Assembly: GCA_964576115.1 (NCBI GenBank)
Contig: CAZNUA010000007.1
Location: 62,001-115,509 of the forward strand
Length of the DNA: 53,509 bases
Direction of reading: 5' to 3'
DNA from: an uncultured Gemmatimonadota bacterium
Lineage (GTDB): Bacteria > Blakebacterota > Blakebacteria > Blakebacterales > Blakebacteraceae
Positions 8,649 through 23,176 of this stretch are shown one piece after another. Position 1 is the stretch's first letter; every line of letters begins with the position of its first letter. A program made the position numbers and the translations under genes. The notes under the pieces were generated by a model that saw only the letters and a program-made list of their open reading frames with translations, was not told the origin of the DNA and ran no database searches.

Positions 8649-9191
8649 TTAGAATTGAACGTTCAGCCGGTCTGCAGAAACCGGTATGACAGACGTCCCG
8701 GGCCGGAGGACGGCCGCCAGCATCTGTCTGAGGATCTCATCACTCGGGGCCAGTCCGGCGATTGCACGGGCGGCCGAACCCAGGGTGGCCAGAGCGACCT
8801 CCCGCCCCTGCTCGCGCTCCTGTTCGGTCAAAATCTGCTCGTAAAGAGCCAGATCCTGCAGGGCCGCGAGGTAATCGCTGCTCGCCCGCTGAACCTCCAC
8901 GGCGAGGTGGAAACCGTCGTTCGCTGACGTAACCACCGCTCCCCGTGCCCGCCAGGTTCCCGTCAGGTAACCCATGGCAAATCCGCTCGTGATGAGCAGG
9001 GCCACCGCCGCCGCCACGCCGGCCAGGCGCCGGCCGGTCAGTTCGATCACGGATCGCCGCCGCGGCCCGAGGATTCCCCGCCGGGTAAGCTCGTCGACCA
9101 CCCGTTCCTCCAGCTCCGGATCGGGTTCGCGCTCCCGGGGCAGTGCGGCCAGGGCCTCGATCTCGGGAGACATCTCTTCATCGGTGTTCAT
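8649..9191 (-). CDS. Putative single-pass anti-sigma factor
   Basis: Overlaps the ECF sigma stop. N-terminal LAALPREREPDPELEERV, one TM helix, helical C-terminal domain. Confidence 0.7.
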   Translation of the reverse strand: MNTDEEMSPEIEALAALPREREPDPELEERVVDELTRRGILGPRRRSVIELTGRRLAGVAAAVALLITSGFAMGYLTGTWRARGAVVTSANDGFHLAVEVQRASSDYLAALQDLALYEQILTEQEREQGREVALATLGSAARAIAGLAPSDEILRQMLAAVLRPGTSVIPVSADRLNVQF

Positions 9192-9744
9192 GCTCGATCT
9201 CCTTCACACCGGTCAGCTGCCAGCGCAGTGTTCGGCGCGCTCTCGAGAGGTGACTCTTCGACGTCCCCTCCGGCATAGCCAGCCGCTCGGCGATCTCGCG
9301 GTGTTTCATCCCTTCGATGTCATGCAGCACCAGGACGAACCGCTGTTCATCGGGCAGCGCCCGGATGAGACGTTCCAGGTCGATCCGGTCATCGTCGGGA
9401 GCCGGCGGAACGACAGTGGTGGGAATGACGTCCCCTGGTATCAGCGGGGAACGGCTTTGCTGACGGAGATGCTCGCGAACCACGTTGAGTCCGATCTCCT
9501 GAAGCCAGGTCCCGAAGGCCGAGCGCCACCGGAAGCTGTCGAACGACTCGCAGGCCCGGATCCAGGTCTCCTGGACGACATCCTCCACATTGCTCTCCGG
9601 ACCCGCCAGCAGGCGGGTCACAAAACCGGTCAGACGGGGTGTGTAGCGCCGGAAGAGCTCGCGAAAAGCTCCCTCATCGCCCTGCTGGCGGATGCGGGAG
9701 ATGAGCCGGCGGTCTCCGGCCTGGATGTCTTGCGGGGTATCCAT
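9178..9744 (-). CDS. ECF RNA polymerase sigma-70 factor
   Basis: Region 2 (GDEGAFRELFRRY...EDVVQETWIRA...FGTWL) and region 4 (LPDEQRFVLVLHDIEGMKHREIAERLAMPEGTSKSHLSRAR). Confidence 0.95.
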   Translation of the reverse strand: MDTPQDIQAGDRRLISRIRQQGDEGAFRELFRRYTPRLTGFVTRLLAGPESNVEDVVQETWIRACESFDSFRWRSAFGTWLQEIGLNVVREHLRQQSRSPLIPGDVIPTTVVPPAPDDDRIDLERLIRALPDEQRFVLVLHDIEGMKHREIAERLAMPEGTSKSHLSRARRTLRWQLTGVKEIEHEHR

Positions 9745-9755
9745 TCTATCAAGTG

Positions 9756-9783
9756 AGTCGGGATATGGAACGCAATGGTTGCA
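9756..9783 (-). promoter_or_regulatory. Putative autoregulatory ECF promoter TGCAAC-N17-CGACT, with a near-leaderless transcript
   Basis: Minus strand reads TGCAACCATTGCGTTCCATATCCCGACT, 11 nt before the sigma ATG. No SD sequence. Confidence 0.6.
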
Positions 9784-9828
9784 GGAAAAGATCGATGCTG
9801 CTCAGGTTGCCGGTACCGCAGGGATCGA

Positions 9829-11358
9829 TCAGAACAGCAGCAGGCCGTCAGCCCGCGGCCGCCACTGAGGAAGAGCCATGCTGCTGACAGCCCAGATGCT
9901 GGTCGGCCGGTAGAGGAATATCCAGGGCGCATCATCCCGGACCAGGGTGTAAATCCGCCTGTAGATCGCCTGGCGGTCCTGATCGGAGAAGGTCGCCTCC
10001 GCCTCGGCGATCAGGGAATTCACCCGTGGGTTGTCATACCCCTGCCACCAGGGACCCTGCAGAGTCGAGTGCAGCTTCTCGCGCAGCACCCGCCAGGTAC
10101 TGCGCGGACTCGAATCGAAGCAGCAGGCATCATTTATCCGCTTCTCCCTTACCATCTCGGAGTAGGCGGCTCGATCTTCGTGCACCACGACTTCGACCGA
10201 GATCCCCACCTCCCGGTACTGTTCGGTCATCATCTGCGCCAGAGCGGGAGCCTCATCGGGCATTGCCGCCGGAATATCGAGTACCAGTTCCAGCCCCCCG
10301 GCGAAGCCTGCCTCCGCCAGAAGAGTCCTGGCCCGATCGGGATCGTACCCATAGACCGGTGTCTGCGGATTGTGCCCGAAATGATGGGGCGTCAGATATC
10401 CGTTCAGGGGGGTTGCGGCACCCTCCTTCACATCCCTGATGATGGCCTCGACATCGAGAGCGTAGTTCAGTGCCTGCCTGACCCGGCGGTCGGCGCACGG
10501 CCCCTCGAAAGCGTTGCACATGAAGATGATGCAGAGACCGCTCTCGAGTTCATGAATCAGTCCGCTCCCCTCTCCTTCCATCCGCTCCCGGTCCGCCGGT
10601 CTGAGACCGGCGATGACATCGACCCGACCGTTCATGAGGGCTTCGACCCGGACTTCCGGATCGGGCTCCGCCAGCCAGTGGATCTCGCGGTATTCCGGTT
10701 CCGGACCCCAGTAGCCGCTATGAGCCTCGAGGATGGCCTGACCTTCCCGGATCGCCCCGATCCGGTAGGGTCCGCTGCCGATATACTCCCCGGGCAGGCG
10801 GTGGAGTTCGCTGGCGGGTCCGATCGGCATGGCCACGAGCAGGTCGAGCAGATCGGCCATCGGTTCCGGGGTGACGATCCGGACGGTCAGTTCGTCGTGA
10901 GCCGAGATCCCGGCGTCACCCAGATAGCTGAGATAGACCCCCTGAGTACCGAAAGCACCGCCGATCGCCGGATCGAGCACCCTCTCCAGGGTGGCGACGA
11001 CGTCATCAGCTGTGAGAATCTCGCCGTTGTGGAACTGCACGTCCGGGCGCAGGTGGAACGTCCAGGTCAGGTCGTCTTCGGCCACACTCCAGCTCCGGGC
11101 CAGGGCAGGCACATAGTTCCCGGCGGCGTCGCGGGTAATGAGGGCATCGTAGATCGAGAAGACAAGGCTGAGGCGGTTGACCGAATCACTGCAGATGTGG
11201 GGATCCCCGATCGCAACCGAGGATTGCATGACCGTGAGTATTCCGGGACGGCCGTCTGAGCGGGTATCACCCGAACAGCCGGCGAGTAACAGGAAACCGA
11301 GCAACAGGAATGGAGCCAGGAGTCGGCAGGACCCGGTTCTGAAACTGGGACCATTCAT
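9829..11358 (-). CDS. ABC transporter substrate-binding lipoprotein, family 5 (peptide/nickel type)
   Basis: Lipobox LLAG-C. Motifs IYDALI, PALARSW, TWTFHLRPDVQFHNG, GSGPY, RVRQALNYALD. Confidence 0.92.
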   Translation of the reverse strand: MNGPSFRTGSCRLLAPFLLLGFLLLAGCSGDTRSDGRPGILTVMQSSVAIGDPHICSDSVNRLSLVFSIYDALITRDAAGNYVPALARSWSVAEDDLTWTFHLRPDVQFHNGEILTADDVVATLERVLDPAIGGAFGTQGVYLSYLGDAGISAHDELTVRIVTPEPMADLLDLLVAMPIGPASELHRLPGEYIGSGPYRIGAIREGQAILEAHSGYWGPEPEYREIHWLAEPDPEVRVEALMNGRVDVIAGLRPADRERMEGEGSGLIHELESGLCIIFMCNAFEGPCADRRVRQALNYALDVEAIIRDVKEGAATPLNGYLTPHHFGHNPQTPVYGYDPDRARTLLAEAGFAGGLELVLDIPAAMPDEAPALAQMMTEQYREVGISVEVVVHEDRAAYSEMVREKRINDACCFDSSPRSTWRVLREKLHSTLQGPWWQGYDNPRVNSLIAEAEATFSDQDRQAIYRRIYTLVRDDAPWIFLYRPTSIWAVSSMALPQWRPRADGLLLF

Positions 11359-11407
11359 GGCGATGTCCTCTCTCTCTGACTCTCCCCGGAGGGCTTGTAG
11401 TGCATCC

Positions 11408-12457
11408 TCACCCCAGGAAGAACCCCTCTGCGAGGGGGTCGTCGGGATCGATGACGAACTCGTGGCGGCCGGTGAGGTGGGCCGAGCCCTCGACCTCGGG
11501 AATGACGGCCGGCACTTCCCCGACTGTCGCGGTGTCGATGACCCGGCCGGTGAAGGTCGTGCCGATGATACTCTCGATGACCATCTCCTCCCCCGGACCG
11601 ATCTCGCCACGGGTGTGATGGATCGCCAGACGAGCGCTCACCCCGGTGCCGGTGGGAGAACGATCCACCTGGCCGTCGGCGAAGATACAGACGTTGCGGG
11701 AATCGACCCCGGCGGAGAGCGGCGGGGCGATGAAGATGGTGCCGTAGAGATACCCCAGGTCGGGTTCGCGCGGATGTTCGATCGGCCGGTCGACCATCAC
11801 GGCATGTTTGATCGCCATACCGATCCGGATCAGGCGATCGTGCTCGTCGGCGGTACAGCGCAGATCGAAGTCGGCCGCCTGCACGAAGGCGTAGTAGGCT
11901 CCACCGAAGGCCAGGTCGTAGCGCACCTCCCCCAGGCCGGGGACATTGACGACGGCATCGAGCGTGTCGACGAAGCTGGGAACATTGCGGAAACGCGTCC
12001 GGCGCACCTGCCCGGCCTCGACGAGGGCTACAGCCTCGACCGGTCCGGCCGGAGTGTCGATCCGCATCGCCGTTTCCGGTTCGGCGAACGGGACCAGATC
12101 CAGGTGGGGGGCGGCGGTGGCAATGCCGATGATGCCGTGGCCGCACATGGTCGAATAGCCCTCGTTGTGCAGGAAGAGCACCCCGAAATCGCTTCCGGCC
12201 TCGACCGGCGGGGTGAGGATGCAACCGTACATCTCGCGGTGCCCGCGCGGTTCCCACATCAGGGCCGTGCGCACCTCATCGAGGTGTTCGTGCAGCCAGC
12301 GGCGGCGCTCGAGGATCGTCGCTCCTGCAGGTTCGTCCATGCCGCCGGTCACGATCCGCAGGGGCTCGCCGGCGGTATGGACGTCGACGGTGCGCAAGCG
12401 CCGCCATTCGCCGGGCGGGATCCAGTCGCGGGTTGTTTCCGGCACGCCGTCGGACAT
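11408..12457 (-). CDS. Proline racemase family protein, Cys/Thr type: probable trans-3-hydroxy-L-proline dehydratase
   Basis: Motifs DVHTAGEPLR, EPRGH, STMCGH and DRSPTGTG (Thr in place of the second catalytic Cys). AGGAG RBS before ATG 12457. Confidence 0.85.
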   Translation of the reverse strand: MSDGVPETTRDWIPPGEWRRLRTVDVHTAGEPLRIVTGGMDEPAGATILERRRWLHEHLDEVRTALMWEPRGHREMYGCILTPPVEAGSDFGVLFLHNEGYSTMCGHGIIGIATAAPHLDLVPFAEPETAMRIDTPAGPVEAVALVEAGQVRRTRFRNVPSFVDTLDAVVNVPGLGEVRYDLAFGGAYYAFVQAADFDLRCTADEHDRLIRIGMAIKHAVMVDRPIEHPREPDLGYLYGTIFIAPPLSAGVDSRNVCIFADGQVDRSPTGTGVSARLAIHHTRGEIGPGEEMVIESIIGTTFTGRVIDTATVGEVPAVIPEVEGSAHLTGRHEFVIDPDDPLAEGFFLG

Positions 12458-12610
12458 CTGCTTTTCTCCTGTGCGAGTTCCGGGCTGTTCCAGCCTGACC
12501 ATCATGGTCCATCCCGATCGGTCCTGCAACGCCCGGGCACCGGCTGGCACCGCCGGAACGGCTGGAGTAGAATGAAAGGTGTCGACCGTCATCCGTTCAG
12601 GAGGTCCGTC

Positions 12611-13687
12611 GTGTCCCTGGTCTGCGAAAGCCGCCGGCGGCCGTTCCCCGCTCTGGCCGCCAGTGTCCTGTTCCTCAATCTCACCGCTCTGCCTCTATTC
12701 GCCCAGGCGCCCCTGGCTGTGGGCCGGCTCGTCGCCCGTCCGGGCCAGAGTGTCTCGGGCTTTCTCGATGTGCCGGCCGGCGTCGATGAGGGCACCCAGA
12801 TCCCGATCAGCCTCATCAACGGTTCCCGTCCCGGACCGACCCTGGCCCTGATCGCGGGAGTGCACGGTTATGAGTACCCGCCGATCACGGCTCTGCAGAA
12901 CATCCGGGCCGAGCTCTCGCCCAGAGAACTCTCGGGCCAGGTGATCATCGTGCATGTCGCCAACCTGCCCTCATTCCTGGGCCGAACGATCTATTACAGC
13001 CCGATTGACGGTAAGAACCTCAACCGGGTCTACCCCGGTTCGGCCGACGGTACCGTGTCCGACCGAATCGCCCACGTCATCACAACCGAGATCATCGCCC
13101 GGGCCGACTTCGTGGTGGATATGCACGGCGGGGATGGCAACGAGGCCCTGCGCCCGTACTGCTACTGGATGCAGACCGGCAACCGCAGTCTGGATGAAGC
13201 CGCCCGGCGGCTGGTCATCGCTTTCGGGCTTGATCATATCGTCATCGATCCCGACCGGCCCGGCGATCCGAACCGCTCGCTCTACACCGCCAATACCGCC
13301 CTGACCCGGGGCAAACCGGCTATCACCACCGAGACGGGCCAGCTCGGTTCCAACGACGCCCACTGGGTCGCGATGGCCGAGCGGGGGGTCTGGAACGTGC
13401 TGCGCCATCTCGAGATGGTGACTGGAGAACCGGAAGATCCACCGGCGGTAGTCTGGCTCGAAGGTTACGAAGTTCTGCGCAGCGAGGTGACCGGCATCTT
13501 CCGGGCTACGGTGCGGGACGGCTACGTGGTGGCCGAGGGAGCCCTGCTGGGCACCCTGCACGATTTTTTCGGCCGGCAGGTCGGGCAGGTACGGGCCCCC
13601 TTCGCCGGTGTGGTCAATTACGTCATCGACACCCCGCCGATCAGCGCGGGGGAGCCGGTGGCTATGATCAGCCGGATCAGGCCGTGA
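12611..13687 (+). CDS. Exported succinylglutamate desuccinylase/aspartoacylase (AstE/AspA, M14-like) hydrolase
   Basis: AGGAGG RBS then GTG 12611 (alternative ATG 12572), signal peptide. Motifs GVHGYE, NLNRVYPG, DMHGG, TTETG. Confidence 0.88.
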   Translation: MSLVCESRRRPFPALAASVLFLNLTALPLFAQAPLAVGRLVARPGQSVSGFLDVPAGVDEGTQIPISLINGSRPGPTLALIAGVHGYEYPPITALQNIRAELSPRELSGQVIIVHVANLPSFLGRTIYYSPIDGKNLNRVYPGSADGTVSDRIAHVITTEIIARADFVVDMHGGDGNEALRPYCYWMQTGNRSLDEAARRLVIAFGLDHIVIDPDRPGDPNRSLYTANTALTRGKPAITTETGQLGSNDAHWVAMAERGVWNVLRHLEMVTGEPEDPPAVVWLEGYEVLRSEVTGIFRATVRDGYVVAEGALLGTLHDFFGRQVGQVRAPFAGVVNYVIDTPPISAGEPVAMISRIRP

Positions 13688-15264
13688 AGCCCACCGTATT
13701 GCATCCGCTTACCCGCCGGCGCGAGGTGCTTTCCGCCCTGGCGACGGCCGCGATCATTGCCCTCGCCGGCGGCAGAGCCGGCGCCGCAGGAACGGATGGT
13801 ACCATGACTCAGGATCAGACACCGACCGAACCCCAGGAGAGCGGCCGCGTCCAGCGCTGCGGCACCGACGGGATGTGGTTCCCGGCCGAGCGCGGGGCGC
13901 TCGAGACCATGGTCGACGGCTATCTGGCGGGTCCCGCCTCAGATATCCCCAGTGCTCCGATCGCCCTGATCGTCCCCCATGCCGGTTATGTCTGGTCGGG
14001 CAAGGCAGCCGGAACCGCCTTCGCCGCCCTGCGCGGCCACGCCTATGACCGGGTCATCGTCATGGGTCTGAGCCACCGGACTCCCCTACAGGGAGCCAGT
14101 GTGCTCACCGTCGATGCCTGGGAAACCCCCCTGGGCCGGATCCCGGCCGACGGCGAGGCCATCCAGACTCTGCTCGAGTCTCCGGTTGTCCGCGAACACC
14201 CCGCCGCGCACCGTGACGAGCATTCGGCAGTCAACCAGTATCCCTTTCTGCAGCGGGCGATCGGGGGGCAATTCCGGCTGGTCGAGATGCTGGTGGGCGA
14301 GCTTTCCGATCGCAACCGCACCCGCCTGGCCCGGGCGGTGAGCGAGGTGATGACCGACCGGACCCTGCTGGTCGTGAGCAGCGATTTCACCCACTACGGG
14401 GCCCAGTTCGGCTATGTGCCCTTCTCGGAGAATGTCCCGCACAATCTCGAAGCCCTCAACAACCTGGCCGTGCAGGAGATCCTGCAGGTCGACGTACCCG
14501 GCTTCGATGCCTACCTGGAGCGGACCCACGACACGATCTGCGGCCGCAATGCCATCAGCCTGCTGCTCGAGATACTTACGCCTCTCGAAGACGTTCGCGG
14601 CCTGCGGGTGTCCTTCGACATGAGCGGCCGGCAGAGCGGCGACTGGCGTTCCTCGGTCTCCTATGCCGGGATCGTCTTCTGGCGCGAGTCGGAGGGGCTG
14701 AACGAGCACGAACAACAGGTCCTGCTCGAGATCGCCCGCCGGGCCGCCGGCCTTTTTCTCGAGACCGGCGAGGTACTCACGGTCGAGGAAGCCGGATTCG
14801 ATCTCACGCCCCGGCTCAGAGCCCCGGGAGCGGCTTTCGTGACCTTGAAGAACCGCGGTGAACTGCGCGGCTGCATCGGACATGTGGTGGCGGTGATGCC
14901 GCTGTACCGCTCGGTCGCCCAGAATGCCGTTCAGGCCTGCCGCGACCCGCGCTTTACCTACCAGCCTGTCACCGCCGGCGAGCTCGACGACATCGACCTG
15001 GAAATATCGGTCCTGACGCCCATGCGGCGACTGCTCGATCCCGATCGGGTCGAGGTCGGACGCGACGGGCTGATGATGACCCGGGGGCAGCTCAGCGGCC
15101 TGCTTCTGCCCCAGGTGCCGGTCGAGCAGGGCTGGAACCGGACCGAGTTTCTGGCCCATACCTGTCTCAAGGCCGGCCTGCCCTCCGACGCCTGGCGCGA
15201 CTCCGAGACCGAGATCCTGCGTTTCTCGGCCCAGGTTTTCGGCGAAAACGGACCTCGGGACTGA
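13684..15264 (+). CDS. amrB-amrA: AmmeMemoRadiSam protein B (Memo) - protein A (AMMECR1) fusion with Tat-like signal
   Basis: Memo motifs PHAGY, GLSH, EHS, SSDFTHYG, TICG. AMMECR1 motifs FVTL, LRGCIG, DPRF, EISVL, GLLLPQV, CLKAG. N-terminus TRRREVL plus a hydrophobic region. Confidence 0.92.
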   Translation: MKPTVLHPLTRRREVLSALATAAIIALAGGRAGAAGTDGTMTQDQTPTEPQESGRVQRCGTDGMWFPAERGALETMVDGYLAGPASDIPSAPIALIVPHAGYVWSGKAAGTAFAALRGHAYDRVIVMGLSHRTPLQGASVLTVDAWETPLGRIPADGEAIQTLLESPVVREHPAAHRDEHSAVNQYPFLQRAIGGQFRLVEMLVGELSDRNRTRLARAVSEVMTDRTLLVVSSDFTHYGAQFGYVPFSENVPHNLEALNNLAVQEILQVDVPGFDAYLERTHDTICGRNAISLLLEILTPLEDVRGLRVSFDMSGRQSGDWRSSVSYAGIVFWRESEGLNEHEQQVLLEIARRAAGLFLETGEVLTVEEAGFDLTPRLRAPGAAFVTLKNRGELRGCIGHVVAVMPLYRSVAQNAVQACRDPRFTYQPVTAGELDDIDLEISVLTPMRRLLDPDRVEVGRDGLMMTRGQLSGLLLPQVPVEQGWNRTEFLAHTCLKAGLPSDAWRDSETEILRFSAQVFGENGPRD

Positions 15265-15279
15265 GGTCCGGAGCCGGTC

Positions 15280-16191
15280 GTGGCCTCGCGCGTCGTCGTC
15301 ATGCGTCACGCCGGACTCGCCGGCGACGGCGAACCCGACGCCGGCCTGCTGCCCACCCTCTTCGACCGGGCCGTCTGCGCCCTGACCGGCGAGACCGAAC
15401 CGGCCCGGGCCTGGCATCGCCTGTTTCCGCGCCCGGAACGGATCGGCATCAAGGTCAACTGCCTTGGACTGCCCACCTCTCCCGTTCTCGCCACCGGGCT
15501 GGCCGAAGCCCTCGCGGCGGGCGATTCCGGACCGGAGCGGATCGTGATCTGGGACCGCACCGACCGGGAACTGCGCAGTGCCGGCTACCGCCTGAGCCGC
15601 AACGGCCCGGTGCGCTGCTACGGCACCGATGCTCTTGCCGGAGGGGACGTCATCAGCGGGTACGAATCACGGATCGAGGTGAGCGGTCGGATCGGCAGCA
15701 TGTACAGCCGGATCGTGACCCGCGAGACCGATGCCCTGGTGAGCGCGGCGGTCCTCAAGGACCACAATCTGGCCGGTATCTCGGGCTGTCTGAAAAATTT
15801 CTTCGGGGCCATCCACAACCCCAACAAGTATCACGATGACGGCTGCGATCCCTTCGTCGCCGATGTCTGCGTCCACCCCCTGATCGCCGACCGGCTGCGC
15901 CTGGTGTTCTGCGATGCACTCAGACCCCAGTACCACGGCGGTCCGCCGAGCCGGCCCGCCTGGCAGTGGCCTTACGGCGGCTTCCTGCTCGCCACCGACC
16001 CGGTGGCCCTGGACCGGGTCGGGGTCGAGATCATCGAGCGGAAGCGGCGTGCGGCCGGCATGGCCCCCCTGGCAGCCGAGGACCGTCCGCCCCGGCACCT
16101 GGCCAGCGCCCGGGAGCGCGGTCTGGGCACCGACCGGCTCGAGGAGATCGAGATCGTCTGCCCGGGTCTGGACTGGGAGGAGATTGCATGA
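15280..16191 (+). CDS. DUF362 family protein
   Basis: Motifs IGIKVNC, IVIWDR, LKDHNLAGISGCLKNFFG, DPVALD, HLASARERGLG. Confidence 0.82.
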   Translation: MASRVVVMRHAGLAGDGEPDAGLLPTLFDRAVCALTGETEPARAWHRLFPRPERIGIKVNCLGLPTSPVLATGLAEALAAGDSGPERIVIWDRTDRELRSAGYRLSRNGPVRCYGTDALAGGDVISGYESRIEVSGRIGSMYSRIVTRETDALVSAAVLKDHNLAGISGCLKNFFGAIHNPNKYHDDGCDPFVADVCVHPLIADRLRLVFCDALRPQYHGGPPSRPAWQWPYGGFLLATDPVALDRVGVEIIERKRRAAGMAPLAAEDRPPRHLASARERGLGTDRLEEIEIVCPGLDWEEIA

Positions 16192-17471
16192 GCGGCTCAT
16201 CGTCATCCTCCTATCGGCGCCCGGCGCAGAGCCGCCGTCGCTTCCTGCGCACCGCCGGCGGCGGAGCCGGAGCGCTGTGCACCGGCGCGCTGGGAGCGGG
16301 AGCGATACAAGCCGGCATGGCGGCCCCCGAACCCCCGTTCTGTATGGGGTGCGGAACCGACCGACGCCCGCCGATCGACACCAATCTGATCGATACCGCG
16401 AGACCGGTCCGCAGCGGCCGGCCGGGGGGATTCGCGGTCCGGCCGGCCCGGTGGTACGACGAGTTGGATGACGGCATGGTCCGCTGCCGGCTCTGCCCGC
16501 GAGAATGCGTGGTGGCCGACGTGGAACGCGGCTACTGCGGGGTGCGCGAGAACCGCGGCGGCGAGTACGTCACGCTGGTTTACGGAAGCGTCTGCAGTTT
16601 CGCCATCGACCCGATCGAGAAGAAACCCCTCTATCACTACCTGCCCGGCACCAATGCCCTGAGCCTGGCCACGGCCGGCTGCAACATGGAATGCCTCTTC
16701 TGCCAGAACTGGGAGATCAGCCAGGTGCGCCCCGAGCAGGTCGAGTCGATCGAGCTGCTCCCCGAGCGGATCGTCGAAACCGCCCGGGCCCAGCAATGTC
16801 CCACCATCGCCTACACCTACTCCGAACCGGTGATCTTCTACGAGTACATGTACGATACCGCCGAACTGGGCCGGGAGCGGGGCGTGGGCAGTGTCATGAT
16901 CTCGAACGGCTACATCCACGAGGAACCGCTGCGGGAGGTCTGCCGCCAGCTGACCGGGGTCAAGATCGACCTGAAGGCCTTCACCGAGGAATTCTATACC
17001 GAGTGGTGCGCCGGCGAGCTGGCCCCGGTGCTCGAAACCCTCGAAGTTCTGATCGATATCGGTATCCACACCGAGATCGTGGTCCTGCTCATCCCGACCC
17101 TGAACGATTCGGTCGAGGAGATCGGGGCCATGGCCCGCTGGATCGTGGAGCACCTGGGTCCCGACGTGCCTCTGCAGTTCTCCCGCTTCCACCCCATCTA
17201 CCGGTTGCAGAACCTTCCCCCCACCCCGGTCGCGACCCTGGAACGGGCCCGCACGACCGCTCTGGAAACCGGAGTCAACTATGTCTATATCGGCAACGTA
17301 CCGATGCACGAGGGCAGTCACACGTACTGCCCTTCATGCGGCCGGGTCGTCATTCGCCGGGTAGGGTATTCAACCGATGCTTCGGGACTCGTCGACGGCC
17401 GGTGCGCGGGCTGCGGACGGGCTATCCCGGGGATATGGACCCAGGAGCAGGCCCTCGCTTCACGAGGGTGA
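16188..17471 (+). CDS. amrS: AmmeMemoRadiSam radical SAM enzyme with Tat signal
   Basis: ATGA-coupled to DUF362. Motifs CRLCPREC...GYCGVREN, DPIEKKPLYH, CNMECLFCQNWEISQ, AYTYSEP, IDLK, RFHP, TYCPSCG. N-terminal SRRRFLR. Confidence 0.95.
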   Translation: MSGSSSSSYRRPAQSRRRFLRTAGGGAGALCTGALGAGAIQAGMAAPEPPFCMGCGTDRRPPIDTNLIDTARPVRSGRPGGFAVRPARWYDELDDGMVRCRLCPRECVVADVERGYCGVRENRGGEYVTLVYGSVCSFAIDPIEKKPLYHYLPGTNALSLATAGCNMECLFCQNWEISQVRPEQVESIELLPERIVETARAQQCPTIAYTYSEPVIFYEYMYDTAELGRERGVGSVMISNGYIHEEPLREVCRQLTGVKIDLKAFTEEFYTEWCAGELAPVLETLEVLIDIGIHTEIVVLLIPTLNDSVEEIGAMARWIVEHLGPDVPLQFSRFHPIYRLQNLPPTPVATLERARTTALETGVNYVYIGNVPMHEGSHTYCPSCGRVVIRRVGYSTDASGLVDGRCAGCGRAIPGIWTQEQALASRG

Positions 17472-19845
17472 TTCCCGTCAATCCGGCCGCGGCGATCAGG
17501 CCCACGGCCAGCAGGACACAGGCGGCTCCGGTTCCCACCACCGGGACCAGGACGGTACCGGTCAGCAGGGCTCCGGCGGCTCCGCCCAGATGATCGGCCC
17601 AGGCCACCCGCCCGGCTGCCTCGGCGGTCCCGAAGCCTGTACCGAGCCCGACCCGGGCCGCCATCGGAAAGAGGGCCCCGCCGAGTACTCCCGCCGCTCC
17701 CACCAGTCCGAAAATGGCGGTTTCACCGACCAGGCTCGCCGCTGACGCAGAGCGCAGCCAGGGCAGCAGCAGAGCCAGCAGTAGCGCGAAGAGAGCCGCG
17801 GCTGAGTCGAGAACCATCATGCCCCGCAGCCCGCGTCGAACCGCCTCCGAGCCGGTTCGCGCTTCACCGGCCGCCTGCCCCGGAAAACCGGTCGACAGAG
17901 CGCGGTTGGCGAGCAGGCTGCCGATGACCAGTCCGGCCATGAAGATCCCCACGATCAGACCGATCATGCGGTAGACGTAGCCGAAGAGAACCTGGAAGGC
18001 GTAGAGCAGGATGATCTCGACCGCCATGCTGAAGCAGCCCACCGAGGCCGTCGACCAGAGCACTGCCGTACGGACCGGCACGGGATCGACACGGCGCAGC
18101 CCGACGAAACCGACGGCCAGAGTCAGGGCGAGGATCAGCAGTGCGATCGGAACCGGACGCAGTCCGAGGACGAACCCGACCAGACCCTGACCGCGCATCG
18201 GGGGCGCCTGCCCGGCGGCGTGCGCGCCCCGCGCCGTGGCGAACCAGAGCCGGTGATGGTACAGGGTCGCGACGGGATGGTCGTCGGTGTTGACACGGTC
18301 GGGGGTGTGGGTGTGCAGGGCCTGATCGACCACCGCCCGCTTGGCGGGATCGAACATGTCTGTCGCCCCGGTAAACCAGAGGGGATCGAAGTGAGCCGAG
18401 TCGATCTCCCGCTCGTTGTAGCGGCGAGCGAGTCCGGAGCCCTGGCGGGTCAGCATCCCCTCACGCCGGGCGGCAAAAATATCGGTCGGATAGGCGAAAG
18501 TCACCAGGACGTCAGTGAAGACCGTCCGGAGGGGCTCCACGATGCTGGCCACATACGCCGAGGCTTCGGCTCCCCAGTAACCGGTCGAACCCCGCAGCGT
18601 GAAGGCGAGAACTCCGTCGGGAGCCATGATCCGTTCCAGTTCGGCGAAGAACTCCCGGGTGTAGAGCCGGGCGGAGAGGATCGTGGCCGGTTCGGGGGCC
18701 GCGAGGATGACCAGATCCCATCCTGCCCGCCCCTCCCGGGCAAGCCTCTTGACCCGGTAACGGATGTCGCCATAGCGCACGCGCACGGCCGGTGAGCGCA
18801 GAGCGGCCAGATCGTCGGCCTCGAGAAAGCGACTCTGGGCCGTGAAGGCCTGTTCGTCGAGGGTGACCAGTTCCACTTCGACGGGGTGGTGGCGGAGCAG
18901 TTCGGCGACCAGCCCCTCCTGGCCGCCGCCGAGCAGGAGGATCCGCTTCGGATCGGGATGCTGGCAGGCGGTAAAATGGGCCGTGATGGCATGGGCCACG
19001 GGATCGGGCCAGGTGGCTTCGACCTGGCCGTTGAGATAGAGACTGTATTCATTCTCGAGCCGCCCGATATCGATGTGCTGGTAACGCGAATCGGCAGCCA
19101 GGCCGAGTTCGAGCCCGGGGGCGAAACTGCTCCAGCGCCACCGCCCGGTCAACTGGTCGAGCCGGGCCGGCAGCGAAAGCAGGGTCAGGGCAGCCAGCAG
19201 CGTCGCCAGTGCGACGGCGGCGAACCGCGCGGTACGATGACGCTCCTCACCGGCCAGCAGGAGCAGCAGAGCGGCCGGAAGCAGGGTGCCGAGACCGATC
19301 GCCAGAGTGAAAGAATCGAGCCGGGCCACCAGGAAAAAGCTGAAGAGAGCGCCGCCGACCAGGCTCCCCGCCGCCTCGACGGCATAGATCCTTCCGACCG
19401 AGCGCGCCCGGACGGTATCGTCGCCGGCATCTTCTGCCAGCACGGCGCTGGCGGTCGGAAAGGCCGCCCCGATCGGAATCCCCACCGGCAGAGCGGCAAG
19501 CAGGTCGATCAGCAGTACCGCTCCCGGGCCCGGGTACGCTCCCGCTCCAAGCCCGAAGATGAGTCGCGAAGCGCGCAGGAAGACGAGCACCGCCGTCAGA
19601 GAGAGAGGCAGCACCAGGACGGCTCCGGCCAGCCATCGCCGGGCGCTGTCGGCAGTGCGGGCGCGGTGCCGGACGCCGGCCGCCCCCAGAGCCACACCCA
19701 CGAGCCAGAAGGTGAAGATGAAGCCCCAGGCCAGTTCGGAACCGAGCAGAACGACCTGGGCTTCGCGCAGCAGCAGGGCCTGGGCGCAAACGGCGTAGGC
19801 GCCGAGCAGGAAATACAAGGTCAGGGGCGTGCGTCGGGACGGCAT
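17422..19845 (-). CDS. Polytopic membrane protein with a central spermidine-synthase-like domain (fused MFS/spermidine synthase type), catalytically degenerate
   Basis: Multiple TM helices flank the segment DSRYQHI...HPDPKRILLLGGG...DLVIL...LYTREFF...PDGVL. The 3' end overlaps amrS by 50 bp. Confidence 0.85.
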   Translation of the reverse strand: MPSRRTPLTLYFLLGAYAVCAQALLLREAQVVLLGSELAWGFIFTFWLVGVALGAAGVRHRARTADSARRWLAGAVLVLPLSLTAVLVFLRASRLIFGLGAGAYPGPGAVLLIDLLAALPVGIPIGAAFPTASAVLAEDAGDDTVRARSVGRIYAVEAAGSLVGGALFSFFLVARLDSFTLAIGLGTLLPAALLLLLAGEERHRTARFAAVALATLLAALTLLSLPARLDQLTGRWRWSSFAPGLELGLAADSRYQHIDIGRLENEYSLYLNGQVEATWPDPVAHAITAHFTACQHPDPKRILLLGGGQEGLVAELLRHHPVEVELVTLDEQAFTAQSRFLEADDLAALRSPAVRVRYGDIRYRVKRLAREGRAGWDLVILAAPEPATILSARLYTREFFAELERIMAPDGVLAFTLRGSTGYWGAEASAYVASIVEPLRTVFTDVLVTFAYPTDIFAARREGMLTRQGSGLARRYNEREIDSAHFDPLWFTGATDMFDPAKRAVVDQALHTHTPDRVNTDDHPVATLYHHRLWFATARGAHAAGQAPPMRGQGLVGFVLGLRPVPIALLILALTLAVGFVGLRRVDPVPVRTAVLWSTASVGCFSMAVEIILLYAFQVLFGYVYRMIGLIVGIFMAGLVIGSLLANRALSTGFPGQAAGEARTGSEAVRRGLRGMMVLDSAAALFALLLALLLPWLRSASAASLVGETAIFGLVGAAGVLGGALFPMAARVGLGTGFGTAEAAGRVAWADHLGGAAGALLTGTVLVPVVGTGAACVLLAVGLIAAAGLTGITLVKRGPAPGSISPG

Positions 19846-19876
19846 ACCTGCATCTTAGGCGCCCCCCCGCCCACCT

Positions 19877-20503
19877 TCAAGACGACGTCAGCCGCCCGGA
19901 TAACGGAGCCGAAGCCCCCCACCAGAGGAAACTCTCCCGGAAGAGCACCGGCCGCAGCGACGAACGCAGGATGACTTCCCGTCCCTCGGGCAAGGTCCAG
20001 GCACTACGGAAGACCGGCTCGACCAGGCCGAACCACGAGCGCCTGATGTCGTGCATGAGAAGCTGCCCGCTCGGGCGGAGCACCCGTTCGAATTCACCCA
20101 GCATTGTGATCGGATCTTCGACGATATGCAGCATGCCGATACAGATCACCGCCTCGAAAGCATCGAGAGGCCAGGGAATGTCGTGCACATCGGCGTGGGT
20201 GAACCGCACCCGTTCGGTTACCCCTTCGGCCTCGGCGTGCGCCCGGGCCAGGCGCAGGAGCGGTTCGGAGAGGTCGATCCCGATCACGTCGGCATCGGGC
20301 AGGGCTCGGGCCAGGGCGAGGGCGGTGGTGCCCGGCCCGCAGCCGGCGTCGAGGATTCTCCCGCCCCGGAACCCCAGAGCCTTCAGCTCGCGCGCATACC
20401 GGCGACCGCGCCGGGCCCCGGCTCCCCCCTCGCGACGGGCATAGGTGCGGGCCCATTCGGGATCATCGAACACCCGATCGTGTCGCAGTGCCTGCCGTTC
20501 CAT
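19877..20503 (-). CDS. Class I SAM-dependent methyltransferase
   Basis: Motifs ILDAGCGPG, GIDLS, ADVHDIP, RVLRPSG. AAGGAG RBS before ATG 20503. Confidence 0.9.
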   Translation of the reverse strand: MERQALRHDRVFDDPEWARTYARREGGAGARRGRRYARELKALGFRGGRILDAGCGPGTTALALARALPDADVIGIDLSEPLLRLARAHAEAEGVTERVRFTHADVHDIPWPLDAFEAVICIGMLHIVEDPITMLGEFERVLRPSGQLLMHDIRRSWFGLVEPVFRSAWTLPEGREVILRSSLRPVLFRESFLWWGASAPLSGRLTSS

Positions 20504-20574
20504 GAGTCCATCTCCTTGTCCTGCCTCCACGGCACTCAATACCCACCGATGTTCTGCTCCTTCCTCTCATACAG

Positions 20575-20767: not shown

Positions 20768-23176
20768 ATGGGATCTCTCGGTCGTGATCTGCGGTACGGT
20801 CTGCGCACCCTTCGGCGCACCCCTCTGTTCACCGTCGTCACCCTGCTCTGTCTCGGGCTCGGGATCGGCCTGAACGTCACTGTCTTCACCTTCGTCAACG
20901 GCATCTTCCTCCGGCCTCTGCCCTTCGCCGAACCCGACCGGCTGGTGGGAATCTACGAAAACGACCTGGAACGCGGTTTTACCCGCTCCTCGGTGGCCTG
21001 GGGAAATTTCGCGGCCTGGCGCGAACGTAGCGGCTCGTTCAGCACCCTGGCGGCGTACGACGACAGGAGTCTGAACCTGACCGGGAGCGGCGATCCGGCC
21101 CGGATTCCCGCCGCAGCCGTCTCCCACGAACTGTTTGCCGTGCTGGGGACCGCACCCGCCCGCGGACGGCACTTTACACCTGCCGATGACGAGCCCGGCG
21201 CTCCGGGCACGGTCATCCTGAGTCATGGTCTCTGGCGGAACCGTTTTACCCTGGATCCCGCCGTCATCGGGACCACCCTCACCCTGGATGGGGAGGCGCA
21301 CACCGTCATCGGGATCATGCCCGAGGGCTTCCGCTTCCCCGAGACTGCCGACTGCTGGATCCCCCTGCGTCTTTCCCACCCGCCGGGTATCGGCAACCAC
21401 AATCTGGAGGTCGTGGCCCGGCTGGCACAGGGGAGGACCATGACCTCCGCTCAGGCCGACCTCGACGACGTCATGGCGGCCCTGCAGGCCGAGTACCCGG
21501 CAACGGTGGGAACCCGCGGGGCGGTCGTGACCTCCCTGCGTGACGAACTGCTCTACCGGCCCCGCACGACCGTTCTGCTCTTTTCAGGTGTGGTCTGCTT
21601 CGTGCTCCTGCTGGTCTGCGCCAACGTCGCCAACCTGATGCTCACCCGGTCCGAGGTCCGGCAGCGGGAGATCGCGATCCGCACCTCGCTCGGGGCGAAC
21701 CGGAGGCGGATCGTGCAGCAGTTCGGAATCGAGAGCCTCCTGCTGGCCGGCGGCGGAGGCCTGCTCGGTCTGCTGCTGGCGGTTCTCGGACGCGACCTGG
21801 TCCTGGCCCTGGCTCCCGGCCCGATCCCCTACTACTACTCCTTTGCGATCGGAATCCCGGTGATCGCGGCCGCTGTCGGTCTGAGTATCCTGAGTGCAAT
21901 CCTCTTCGGAACGGCTCCGGCTGTCCGCTCCTCTCGTTTCCCGCTGGCTGCAGCCCTGCGTGAGGGGGGCGGCCTGACCGGCTCGCTGCGCCGGCGTCAG
22001 CTGCGTTCGGCCCTGGTGGTGATCGAGATCGCTCTCACCCTGACCATCCTGACCGGGAGCGGGCTCATGCTGCGCACCCTGGGGGAACTGCGTTCGCTCG
22101 AGCCGGGTTTCGAGACCGATCGCCTGCTCACCCTGGGGGTTTCACTGCCCGATGAGATGGCAGAGGAACCGGCTCTCCTGCGCTCTTTCTTTGCGCGTGT
22201 CCTGACCCGGATCGAAGCCCTGCCCGGAGTCGAGCAGGCCTCCTCGGTCTCGAATCTGCCCCTGGGCCGGGGGATGTCGTACGGGAGTTTCTCGATCGAG
22301 GGTCAGGAGGCACCGCCCGAAGGACAGCAGTTCTACGCGTCCAACCGGATCGTGCAGCCCTCCTACTTTTCGACTATGGGAGTGCCCCTTCTCAGCGGCC
22401 GCATCTTCGATGGACGTGACACCCCGGAAAGCGCTCCGGCGGCCATCATCAGCCGGACCTTCGCCGAGAGGTTCTGGCCGGGGGGTGACTGCCTGGGAGC
22501 GAGGATCAAATACGGTGACGCCGATTCACGCTGGCCGTGGATGGAGATCGTCGGAGTGGTCGGCGATACCCGGCACTGGGGCTACACCAGCGATCCCGAA
22601 CCCGAACTCTACCAGGTTTTCGCCCAGCTCCCGGTCCCCTTCCAGACCTTCGTGGTCAGGACTGCCGGCGATCCCGGTCAGCAGGCCGAAGCCGTCTGTG
22701 GCCAGATCTGGGCTGAAGCCCCCGACCTGCCGGTCTTCGACATCCTCACCATGGAAGAAGTCGTGAGCAGCAATTACCGCGACAGCACCCTGATCTCCTG
22801 GCTCTTCGGATTCTTCTCGGCGGTGGCGGTCATGCTCGCGCTGATCGGTATCTACGGCGTGATCTCCTGTTCGGTCGAACGGCAGATGAGGGAATTCGGG
22901 CTGCGCCTGGCCCTGGGAGCTCAGAATCGCGACGTGATCGGGCTCGTCCTGGGACGAGTGGGTGTCCTGGTGGCGATCGGGATCGTTCTCGGCTTCGGTC
23001 TGGCCGGCACCGGTTCGCGCCTCATCCGGGATCTTCTCTTCGGGGTGAGTGCGCTGGATCCCGCGGTCTGGCTAGCGACCGTGCCGCTCGTCGCCGGGAT
23101 CGCCCTGCTGGCCAGCTGGCTGCCGGTCCGTCGGGCGACCCGGGTCGATCCGACCGTGACCCTGCGCTGCGAATAG
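20768..23176 (+). CDS. ADOP-type ABC permease (~802 aa)
   Basis: Starts MGSLGRDLRYGLRTLRRTP. Motifs LLLVCANVANL, EPGFET, GIYGVIS, DPTVTLRCE. The 5' extension in the ORF track is probably not translated. Confidence 0.93.
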   Translation: MGSLGRDLRYGLRTLRRTPLFTVVTLLCLGLGIGLNVTVFTFVNGIFLRPLPFAEPDRLVGIYENDLERGFTRSSVAWGNFAAWRERSGSFSTLAAYDDRSLNLTGSGDPARIPAAAVSHELFAVLGTAPARGRHFTPADDEPGAPGTVILSHGLWRNRFTLDPAVIGTTLTLDGEAHTVIGIMPEGFRFPETADCWIPLRLSHPPGIGNHNLEVVARLAQGRTMTSAQADLDDVMAALQAEYPATVGTRGAVVTSLRDELLYRPRTTVLLFSGVVCFVLLLVCANVANLMLTRSEVRQREIAIRTSLGANRRRIVQQFGIESLLLAGGGGLLGLLLAVLGRDLVLALAPGPIPYYYSFAIGIPVIAAAVGLSILSAILFGTAPAVRSSRFPLAAALREGGGLTGSLRRRQLRSALVVIEIALTLTILTGSGLMLRTLGELRSLEPGFETDRLLTLGVSLPDEMAEEPALLRSFFARVLTRIEALPGVEQASSVSNLPLGRGMSYGSFSIEGQEAPPEGQQFYASNRIVQPSYFSTMGVPLLSGRIFDGRDTPESAPAAIISRTFAERFWPGGDCLGARIKYGDADSRWPWMEIVGVVGDTRHWGYTSDPEPELYQVFAQLPVPFQTFVVRTAGDPGQQAEAVCGQIWAEAPDLPVFDILTMEEVVSSNYRDSTLISWLFGFFSAVAVMLALIGIYGVISCSVERQMREFGLRLALGAQNRDVIGLVLGRVGVLVAIGIVLGFGLAGTGSRLIRDLLFGVSALDPAVWLATVPLVAGIALLASWLPVRRATRVDPTVTLRCE

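Follow-up and report, generated by a model that had tools for sequence, protein, structure and literature searches.

A leader-bearing clade of AmmeMemoRadiSam radical SAM enzymes that probably forms an extracytoplasmic branch of the system

The canonical AmmeMemoRadiSam system comprises an AMMECR1 protein (protein A, TIGR04335), a Memo protein (protein B, TIGR04336) and the radical S-adenosylmethionine (SAM, AdoMet) enzyme AmrS (TIGR04337), all of them leaderless. AMMECR1 and Memo occur from archaea to humans, and to our knowledge no reaction is known for either. Burroughs et al. 2019 (J Biol Chem) reportedly extended the gene contexts of Memo and linked it to nucleotide-base and isoprenoid modification. 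Radical SAM chemistry is sensitive to oxygen; it depends on SAM and on a low-potential reductant, the Fe-S clusters must be protected, and the enzymes are taken as cytoplasmic. Fe-S enzymes of the hydrogenase and dimethyl sulfoxide reductase type, which are exported by the twin-arginine translocation (Tat) pathway, have hitchhiking partners. In what PMC2034487 says of the triad, AMMECR1, a radical SAM enzyme and a dioxygenase-like protein were proposed to act in RNA base modification. The window analysed here, a stretch of 53,509 nucleotides from an uncultured Gemmatimonadota bacterium (contig CAZNUA010000007.1, positions 62,001 to 115,509 of the forward strand; genome G000), holds genes for all three proteins in one operon, and the three models exceed their cut-offs with the catalytic motifs intact. 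In contrast to the canonical system, proteins A and B are here fused into one leader-bearing chain, AmrS carries a Tat-type leader and belongs to a separate clade, and two further proteins are added, a DUF362 protein and a major facilitator superfamily (MFS) transporter with a domain like that of spermidine synthase (SpeE), here called MFS-SpeE. The locus probably represents an extracytoplasmic branch of AmmeMemoRadiSam, with AmrS exported by Tat and, as its target, an envelope molecule, DUF362 or a DUF362 cofactor. Such a variant was proposed in the initial annotation of this DNA, and it agrees with the conservation of the leaders and with the independent routes by which the partners appear to be exported.

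The + strand genes are arranged as tightly as first described. The gene for the Memo-AMMECR1 fusion (13684..15264) overlaps the end of an AstE/AspA-like zinc hydrolase gene (12611..13687) at a GTGA (13684-13687), its stop at 15264 is separated by 15 nt from the GTG start of the DUF362 gene at 15280 (15280..16191), and the latter overlaps the AmrS gene (16188..17471) at an ATGA (16188-16191). Good Shine-Dalgarno sequences precede the starts at 12611 and 16188, with AGGAGG 8 nt before GTG 12611 and GGAGGAG before the AmrS ATG. The leaders quoted earlier for AmrS, Memo-AMMECR1 and the AstE-like protein were all recovered in the translations.

AmrS scores 382.6 bits against TIGR04337 (cut-off 220). 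Its core begins at residue 87 and contains a CX3CX2C motif at C165/C169/C172, and further Cys clusters lie N- and C-terminal. In an alignment of 40 AmrS orthologues the Cys and SAM-site columns, including these three positions, are invariant. The nearest characterised relatives in NCBIfam are protein-activating enzymes of the PflA, NrdG and YjjW type. The leader (residues 1-45; 16188..16322, +) has S-R-R-R-F-L-R at residues 15-21 (16230-16250). The next 25 or so residues are uncharged, rich in Gly and Ala, and include AxA-like sites, so that the leader combines the twin-arginine consensus, uncharged h-region and AxA-type site of a Tat substrate.

This leader is widely conserved. An RRxFL-type motif lies within the first 45 residues of 101 of the 120 closest database homologues (57-100% identity), and the other 19 are mostly truncated gene calls on short contigs or proteins with longer N-termini. 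Eighty related genomic loci were compared, spanning Gemmatimonadota, Phycisphaerae, Sumerlaeota, Zixibacteria, KSB1, Aminicenantes, Latescibacterota, Calditrichia, Ignavibacteria and Omnitrophota. When these are taken together with the window, 73 of 81 AmrS frames show RR followed by at least 12 uncharged residues, and most of the eight negatives keep [ST]RRxF[LI]K and have a single charged residue later in the sequence. With defined starts, RR plus an uncharged stretch is found in 74/80 orthologues against 5/119 controls of the leaderless type. R16 and R17 are invariant in the 40-row alignment, whose rows were chosen for an R[RK] motif that is itself present in 79 of 80. The Pfam model TAT_signal (PF10518) matches 17 of the 40 orthologues at E <= 1 (best 3e-4), and the genome of the window encodes TatC (216 bits) and two TatA/B proteins (66 and 54.6 bits). 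The twin-arginine leader recorded for AmrS in the initial annotation is neither missing from homologues in many phyla nor, very probably, placed upstream of the true start. A conserved Cys in AmrS leaders was also considered as a lipoprotein site, a reading that was rejected since too few uncharged residues precede it for a lipobox.

Leader-bearing AmrS proteins form one clade, separate from the leaderless canonical AmrS. The canonical reference set consists of homologues of a second, leaderless AmrS encoded by G000 (contig C38, L002:1489-2583, − strand; 364 aa, TIGR04337 299.9 bits), an orphan that adjoins a dipeptidase-like gene. The sole AMMECR1 of G000 is the exported fusion and its sole other Memo match is partial (73 bits, contig C3), so this canonical AmrS seems to have no cytoplasmic partners. 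A FastTree phylogeny was built from 185 AmrS cores with the leader columns removed, the rows being 81 from the loci, a random 35/119 and 70/119 database matches and the paralogue, with two rows lacking a full core dropped. A single branch (SH-like 100) splits 70 canonical from 115 leader-side rows. On the canonical side 67 rows lack RR and three are false positives of the regular expression; on the leader side 107 have RR and eight are truncated or missed by the expression. A second tree used representatives of clusters at 50% identity (147 of the best 150, plus the window and the paralogue; 149 rows). In it a clade of 56 (support 84) contains 42 export-type N-termini, the other 14 being leaderless by regular expression but about nine of them, by eye, RK/RR variants, fusions or truncations; only one export-flagged row falls outside. 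Both quick trees sample by similarity to two queries, so intermediate forms of AmrS may be unsampled. The clade of Tat-bearing AmrS with co-occurring partners that had been envisaged for this system is thus found, and the partner families are described below. In four leaderless AmrS proteins (P0341, P0348, P0354, P0357), inteins with LAGLIDADG domains interrupt the chain shortly ahead of the radical SAM core or inside it. Triple fusions of AmrS, AMMECR1 and Memo without a leader, 900-1150 residues long, also exist (P0299, P0314, P0319, P0321-P0323, P0327, P0339, P0353, P0358, P0374, P0391) and confirm the canonical triad by the Rosetta-stone argument.

The Memo-AMMECR1 fusion scores 189.8 bits against TIGR04336 (cut-off 26) and 160.7 bits against TIGR04335 (cut-off 99). 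Both the Memo His/Asp/Cys metal site and the LRGCIG motif of AMMECR1 are preserved, and H99, E179, H180, D234, H237, C286 and G396-G399 are invariant in 29 such fusions. Its leader (residues 1-34; 13684..13785, +) has T-R-R-R at residues 10-13, a hydrophobic stretch and R-A-G-A. All 29 neighbouring fusions with defined starts carry a leader, of which 6 are Tat-like (RR/RK), 19 resemble those of the general secretory (Sec) pathway and 4 have a lipobox, and no leader was called in 113 of 119 control proteins. Only within the same genus is the RR motif retained, and there a congener has an RR-plus-hydrophobic leader of different sequence; elsewhere the leader is of the Sec or lipoprotein type. 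The Tat-type leader first described for this protein is therefore a local feature, true of the window and its genus and not a trait of the system. Sec and lipoprotein leaders are a second, unrelated export route, and as such they point to the same compartment as the AmrS leader. Among genomes that have an AmrS locus without the fusion, 3/5 encode a fused Memo-AMMECR1 with a Sec-type leader elsewhere, and the unfused A and B proteins of those same genomes have no leader.

The DUF362 protein (PF04015, 56.1 bits) has no leader of its own in the window. Among the 55 related DUF362 proteins, 26 have Tat-like leaders, 29 have none and none is Sec-like. Such a distribution would be expected if a folded protein, possibly bearing a cofactor, left by Tat either alone or on a partner. 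In leaderless DUF362 pairs the adjacent AmrS has a leader in 27/28 cases, and where DUF362 has its own Tat leader AmrS still retains one in 23/24 pairs. The two genes overlap or lie within 20 nt of each other in 39 of 52 pairs. Modelling of the AmrS-DUF362 complex, suggested at the outset, gave a score of 0.84, against 0.00 for the best of three controls; the 0.84 mark is reached by 58/80 solved complexes and 2/110 mismatched pairs, counts that are only rough because our own alignments were used. At least 92% of the contacts agree between runs, and the partner pLDDT is at least 92. In the predicted interface, the invariant H179-H185 loop of DUF362 and its residues 219-223 meet residues 107-118, 168 and 176-185 of AmrS, beside the CX3CX2C motif. 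The model thus supports binding of DUF362 to AmrS, with the most conserved DUF362 loop placed at the mouth of the radical SAM active site. Such an arrangement resembles that of Tat hitchhiking enzymes, in that an S/T-R-R-x-F-L-K leader is carried by the cofactor subunit and the adjacent leaderless partner is predicted to bind it, and differs from them in that the cargo is a radical SAM enzyme.

The DUF362 structure model (pLDDT 94) adopts a LarA-like two-domain fold. The top 18 Foldseek matches are all LarA-type (E 4e-5 to 9e-4, probability 0.99-1.0, TMq ~0.5), and LarA-type enzymes are the only significant structural matches; a sequence search against solved structures gave no match at E <= 1. 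According to the part of PMC11770544 that concerns these families, DUF362 and DUF2088 (LarA-type) belong to the same Pfam clan. While the two-domain fold is that of the LarA-type nickel-pincer-nucleotide racemases (DUF2088), the window protein is about 120 residues shorter. In G000, LarC (Ni_insertion) is split into three pieces, all at the ends of contigs, Lar_N is matched only weakly (27 bits), and there are four DUF362 genes; these matches are spread over contigs C117, C138, C106, C49, C3, C13 and C46. These LarC pieces and DUF362 genes raise the question of whether DUF362 uses a nickel-pincer-type cofactor.

MFS-SpeE (807 residues; 17422..19845, −) is a 14-helix membrane protein with a Spermine_synth domain. 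Its model (pLDDT 84.5, pTM 0.87) shows seven transmembrane (TM) helices, a SpeE-like domain of AdoMet/decarboxylated AdoMet fold inserted between TM7 and TM8 (residues ~246-512; 18310..19110, −), and seven further TM helices. The soluble domain matches aminopropyltransferases (E 3e-11, TMt 0.74) over the SpeE fold, including the N-terminal beta domain. The membrane part has the 12-helix MFS fold, matching about 40 MFS entries at Z 28-19 with 340-390 residues aligned; the best match is VMAT2 (Z 28, rmsd 3.7 over 358 residues), followed by VAChT, SotB, NorA, OCTN2 and FLVCR2. In 19/19 homologues the short loops on the side of the N-terminus hold 12-21 Lys plus Arg (K+R) residues, compared with 1-5 in those on the same side as the SpeE-like domain, so that by the positive-inside rule this domain faces outward. 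An outward domain fits an MFS core that has its termini in the cytoplasm and an additional helix flanking the insert at either end. The 3′ ends of the AmrS and MFS-SpeE genes overlap convergently by 50 nt (17422-17471), and the last eight MFS-SpeE residues are of low confidence in the model.

The SpeE-like domain retains the motifs of the AdoMet site, namely GGG, an acidic ribose ligand (Asp) and G-D. The D-x-x-D-P sequence, which we take to be the catalytic motif of aminopropyltransferases, is replaced by AAPEP in the window and by NLP[ED]P (NLPEP or NLPDP) in the family, so that the first Asp is lost and the second position is Glu or Asp. Every SpeE equivalog cut-off is missed (PRK03612, 128.8 against 472; PRK00811, 69.6 against 260; TIGR00417, 61.6 against 249.55), and for this reason the domain is called SpeE-like and not spermidine synthase; NF037959 ('fused MFS/spermidine synthase') scores 17.8 against a cut-off of 40. 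The protein therefore shares the SpeE and MFS folds with spermidine synthase and NF037959 proteins, yet it lies below their cut-offs, has an altered DxxDP motif and carries its domain between TM7 and TM8 on the outer face. The SAM-fold membrane partner named in the initial annotation is thus real and co-occurs with AmrS, and its identity is now that of an MFS protein with an outward-facing SpeE-like domain. A role in the supply or recycling of a SAM-derived molecule is plausible.

Clustering of open reading frames (ORFs) over the 80 loci yields four recurrent families: AmrS (77 loci), DUF362 (55), MFS-SpeE (39) and Memo-AMMECR1 (33). DUF362 lies directly upstream of AmrS in 55/80 loci and MFS-SpeE directly downstream in 28/80. 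DUF362 is present in 26 of the 32 loci that have at least 5 kb on both sides, and all five genomes with an AmrS locus lacking MFS-SpeE encode a full-length copy elsewhere (5/5). Across the phylum group of G000, which holds only ten species genomes, canonical AmrS is found in 10/10 and Tat-type AmrS only in G000, G003 and G004; the DUF362 subfamily and MFS-SpeE occur in exactly these three, which represent two genera and as kin are not independent, and are absent from the other seven.

Fusions in sister lineages connect AmrS with electron-transfer modules. A domain scan of the 36 long representatives among 150 revealed several fusions in the export-side part of the tree, namely DsbD_2-AmrS (P0256, P0267), DsbD_2-FMN_bind-Fer4_5-AmrS (P0264), FMN_bind-Fer4_5-AmrS (P0263, P0266) and signal anchor-FMN_bind-AmrS (P0265), as well as proteins in which a signal peptide precedes a carbohydrate-binding module (CBM) or beta-propeller joined to AmrS (P0258, P0250). 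The motif [ST]GAT, presumably the target of ApbE, is present in each of the five FMN_bind or FMN_bind-like parts (P0263-P0266 and P0270); P0270 has the motif without a Pfam FMN_bind match. Helix parity and K+R counts place FMN_bind and AmrS outside and Fer4_5 inside in P0264 and P0263. Memo/AMMECR1/AmrS triple fusions also occur on the export side (P0272, 835 aa; P0278, 838 aa), and P0278 begins with a hydrophobic N-terminus followed by Lys residues, a reverse-anchor pattern. As described in the relevant part of PMC8238504, FMN_bind/NapH-like and DsbD modules carry electrons to extracytosolic enzymes; radical SAM, Memo and DUF362 are all absent from the main text of that paper. The [ST]GAT-bearing AmrS fusions resemble the flavinylated extracytosolic systems (NapH-like/NosR and DsbD-type) treated in PMC8238504. 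The window operon itself differs in that it contains no FMN_bind/NapH-like or DsbD module, and the one FMN_bind gene of G000 lies elsewhere.

Taken as an exported system, the components suggest the following course. AmrS, a radical SAM enzyme with several Fe-S clusters and a relative of the glycyl-radical activases, would fold and load its clusters in the cytoplasm and, once folded, would bind the LarA-like DUF362 protein, with the conserved loop at the mouth of the radical SAM site. AmrS would then leave by Tat on its own leader, with DUF362 riding along, as in the window, or using a Tat leader of its own, while Memo-AMMECR1 would be exported separately, by its RR leader in the window and by Sec or lipoprotein leaders elsewhere. 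MFS-SpeE would be the membrane partner and the likeliest route for delivering or salvaging a SAM-derived molecule. Reducing power would cross the membrane to AmrS, as is expected from the fusion of sister-lineage AmrS to NapH/NosR-like FMN-binding or DsbD/CcdA-like modules. Given the resemblance of AmrS to glycyl-radical activases, a single activating event might need only one SAM carried out with the enzyme; the outward AdoMet-fold domain on a transporter argues instead for continuing supply or salvage. The target may be a molecule of the envelope or periplasm, the DUF362 protein or a cofactor that it carries, and an extracytoplasmic location would mean that it is not RNA, in agreement with the non-nucleic-acid substrate first suggested for this locus. 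We hold only tentatively, and with rather less than even weight, the fullest form of this scheme, in which radical SAM catalysis takes place outside the cytoplasmic membrane, with a SAM-derived co-substrate supplied through MFS-SpeE and electrons passed across the membrane, and acts together with exported Memo-AMMECR1 on an envelope molecule.

The predicted interface is also compatible with a radical SAM step that takes place in the cytoplasm, on DUF362 or its cofactor, with the Tat leader serving only to carry the matured complex out. It sets the invariant DUF362 loop at the active-site mouth, the NCBIfam relatives of AmrS activate proteins, Tat is established to export folded complexes, and neither SAM nor low-potential electrons would be needed outside, by which the problem of SAM supply is avoided. 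What makes this order of events unlikely is that AmrS keeps its leader in nearly every pair in which DUF362 already has one, which argues that AmrS is wanted outside in its own right. In addition, the fused proteins keep AmrS permanently attached to electron conduits of the FMN-binding and DsbD-like kinds that face outward, which makes sense only if AmrS is reduced outside, and AmrS co-occurs with an MFS transporter whose AdoMet-fold domain faces outward. A much less probable reading treats the leader as an uncleaved membrane tether or a chaperone-binding tag that leaves AmrS at the cytoplasmic face, working on a substrate which the MFS protein then exports. The weakly hydrophobic, Gly/Ala-rich h-region, the plain TM anchors of some clade members (P0252, P0257) and the reverse-anchor charge pattern of P0278, which suggests a cytoplasmic domain, speak for it. 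An N-in leader nevertheless places the domain C-terminal to it outside, 12-25 uncharged residues after S/T-R-R-x-F-L-K are standard Tat design, the Sec and lipoprotein leaders of the partner Memo-AMMECR1 are incompatible with a cytoplasmic location, and single-anchor FMN_bind-AmrS fusions put both domains on one side. Scarcely credible, finally, is an annotation artefact with true starts 3′ of the RR motifs and the leaders as untranslated chance sequence. In-frame ATG codons are present downstream (ATG 13804; AmrS Met44), but the motif is conserved at the protein level across phyla while flanking residues diverge, Shine-Dalgarno sequences precede the upstream starts, overlapping stop and start codons couple the genes, and the congener of the window keeps the Memo-AMMECR1 leader type in a different sequence.

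Several observations weigh against export of AmrS as a working system. We know of neither SAM nor a low-potential reductant outside the cytoplasm, and the clustering of the 80 loci revealed no dedicated reductase gene conserved in the module. The leader calls combine our own heuristics with weak matches to curated models, and TIGR01409 gives 12.3 bits on residues 15-34 of the window AmrS, below its cut-off of 16.7. Co-occurrence is partial, with MFS-SpeE in 15/32 and Memo-AMMECR1 in 16/32 of the loci flanked by 5 kb or more to either side, and the range of MFS Z scores singles out no substrate. The relatives G001 and G002 (82-85% complete) encode a leader-bearing Memo-AMMECR1, while no Tat-type AmrS, DUF362 subfamily member or MFS-SpeE was found in either, and in G006 the fusion has no leader; from these patterns, Memo-AMMECR1 is not strictly dependent on exported AmrS. 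Among the fusions, the TM parity of P0266 is ambiguous in a crude hydropathy scan, P0256 and P0263 have K/R-rich linkers before AmrS, and the leader of P0272 is Sec-like and not Tat, a combination difficult to square with Fe-S cargo. An extracytoplasmic branch of AmmeMemoRadiSam is still the reading that we favour.

Other genes around the module belong to it less clearly or not at all. The AstE-like protein (12611..13687, +) has a signal peptide at residues 1-33, with RRR and a strongly hydrophobic stretch, and matches PF24827 (AstE_AspA_cat; 88.9 bits, cut-off 25); against the DoeB model (TIGR02994) it scores 128.4 bits, below the cut-off of 402.7. Its gene is found in 1/80 related loci, that of the closest relative. 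The exported hydrolase of the initial annotation thus retains its signal peptide and loses its membership in the system: it is a lineage-specific accessory and not a core part, though translationally coupled in the window. A class I SAM-dependent methyltransferase gene assigned by Pfam (19877..20539, −), upstream of the MFS-SpeE gene, had been noted as converging on the operon, and is set aside here with one weak match in the 80 loci. When 1016 small ORFs (25-90 aa) from the surroundings of the module in related loci were clustered, no precursor-peptide family extended beyond one lineage; the largest cluster, from seven loci, looks like shadow ORFs. The next ORF cluster, from 12 loci (L017, L026, L030, L034, L047, L049, L057, L062, L066, L068, L078, L079), was not counted as a fifth conserved gene, its members appearing heterogeneous and mostly non-adjacent, with a member directly after AmrS in L049 and L062. 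The representative that was scanned is a secreted M14 carboxypeptidase with a T9SS sorting tail, and the AstE-like zinc hydrolase of the window is presumably related to the M14 fold. In the upstream flank (8649-12592) an ECF sigma factor gene (9178-9744, −) is accompanied by a probable anti-sigma gene; a solute-binding protein of the SBP_bac_5 family is also encoded there, as is a member of the proline-racemase family, whose gene diverges from that of the AstE-like protein. The downstream flank (20801-23176) contains MacB/FtsX-type duplicated permeases.

Our literature search returned no report of an exported radical SAM enzyme; Burroughs et al. 2019, which lay outside that search, may list some of the neighbours. 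If true, the system described here would be the first extracytoplasmic radical SAM system and would imply export of SAM. A large, multi-phylum clade built for export would overturn the assumption that radical SAM enzymes are cytoplasmic, and its partners and fusions point to routes by which SAM and electrons may cross the membrane. An exported triad could not act on RNA, which bears on the puzzle of what AMMECR1 and Memo do. The additional partners, namely DUF362, MFS-SpeE and the electron conduits, are testable and would open the chemistry of the triad to experiment in a new way.

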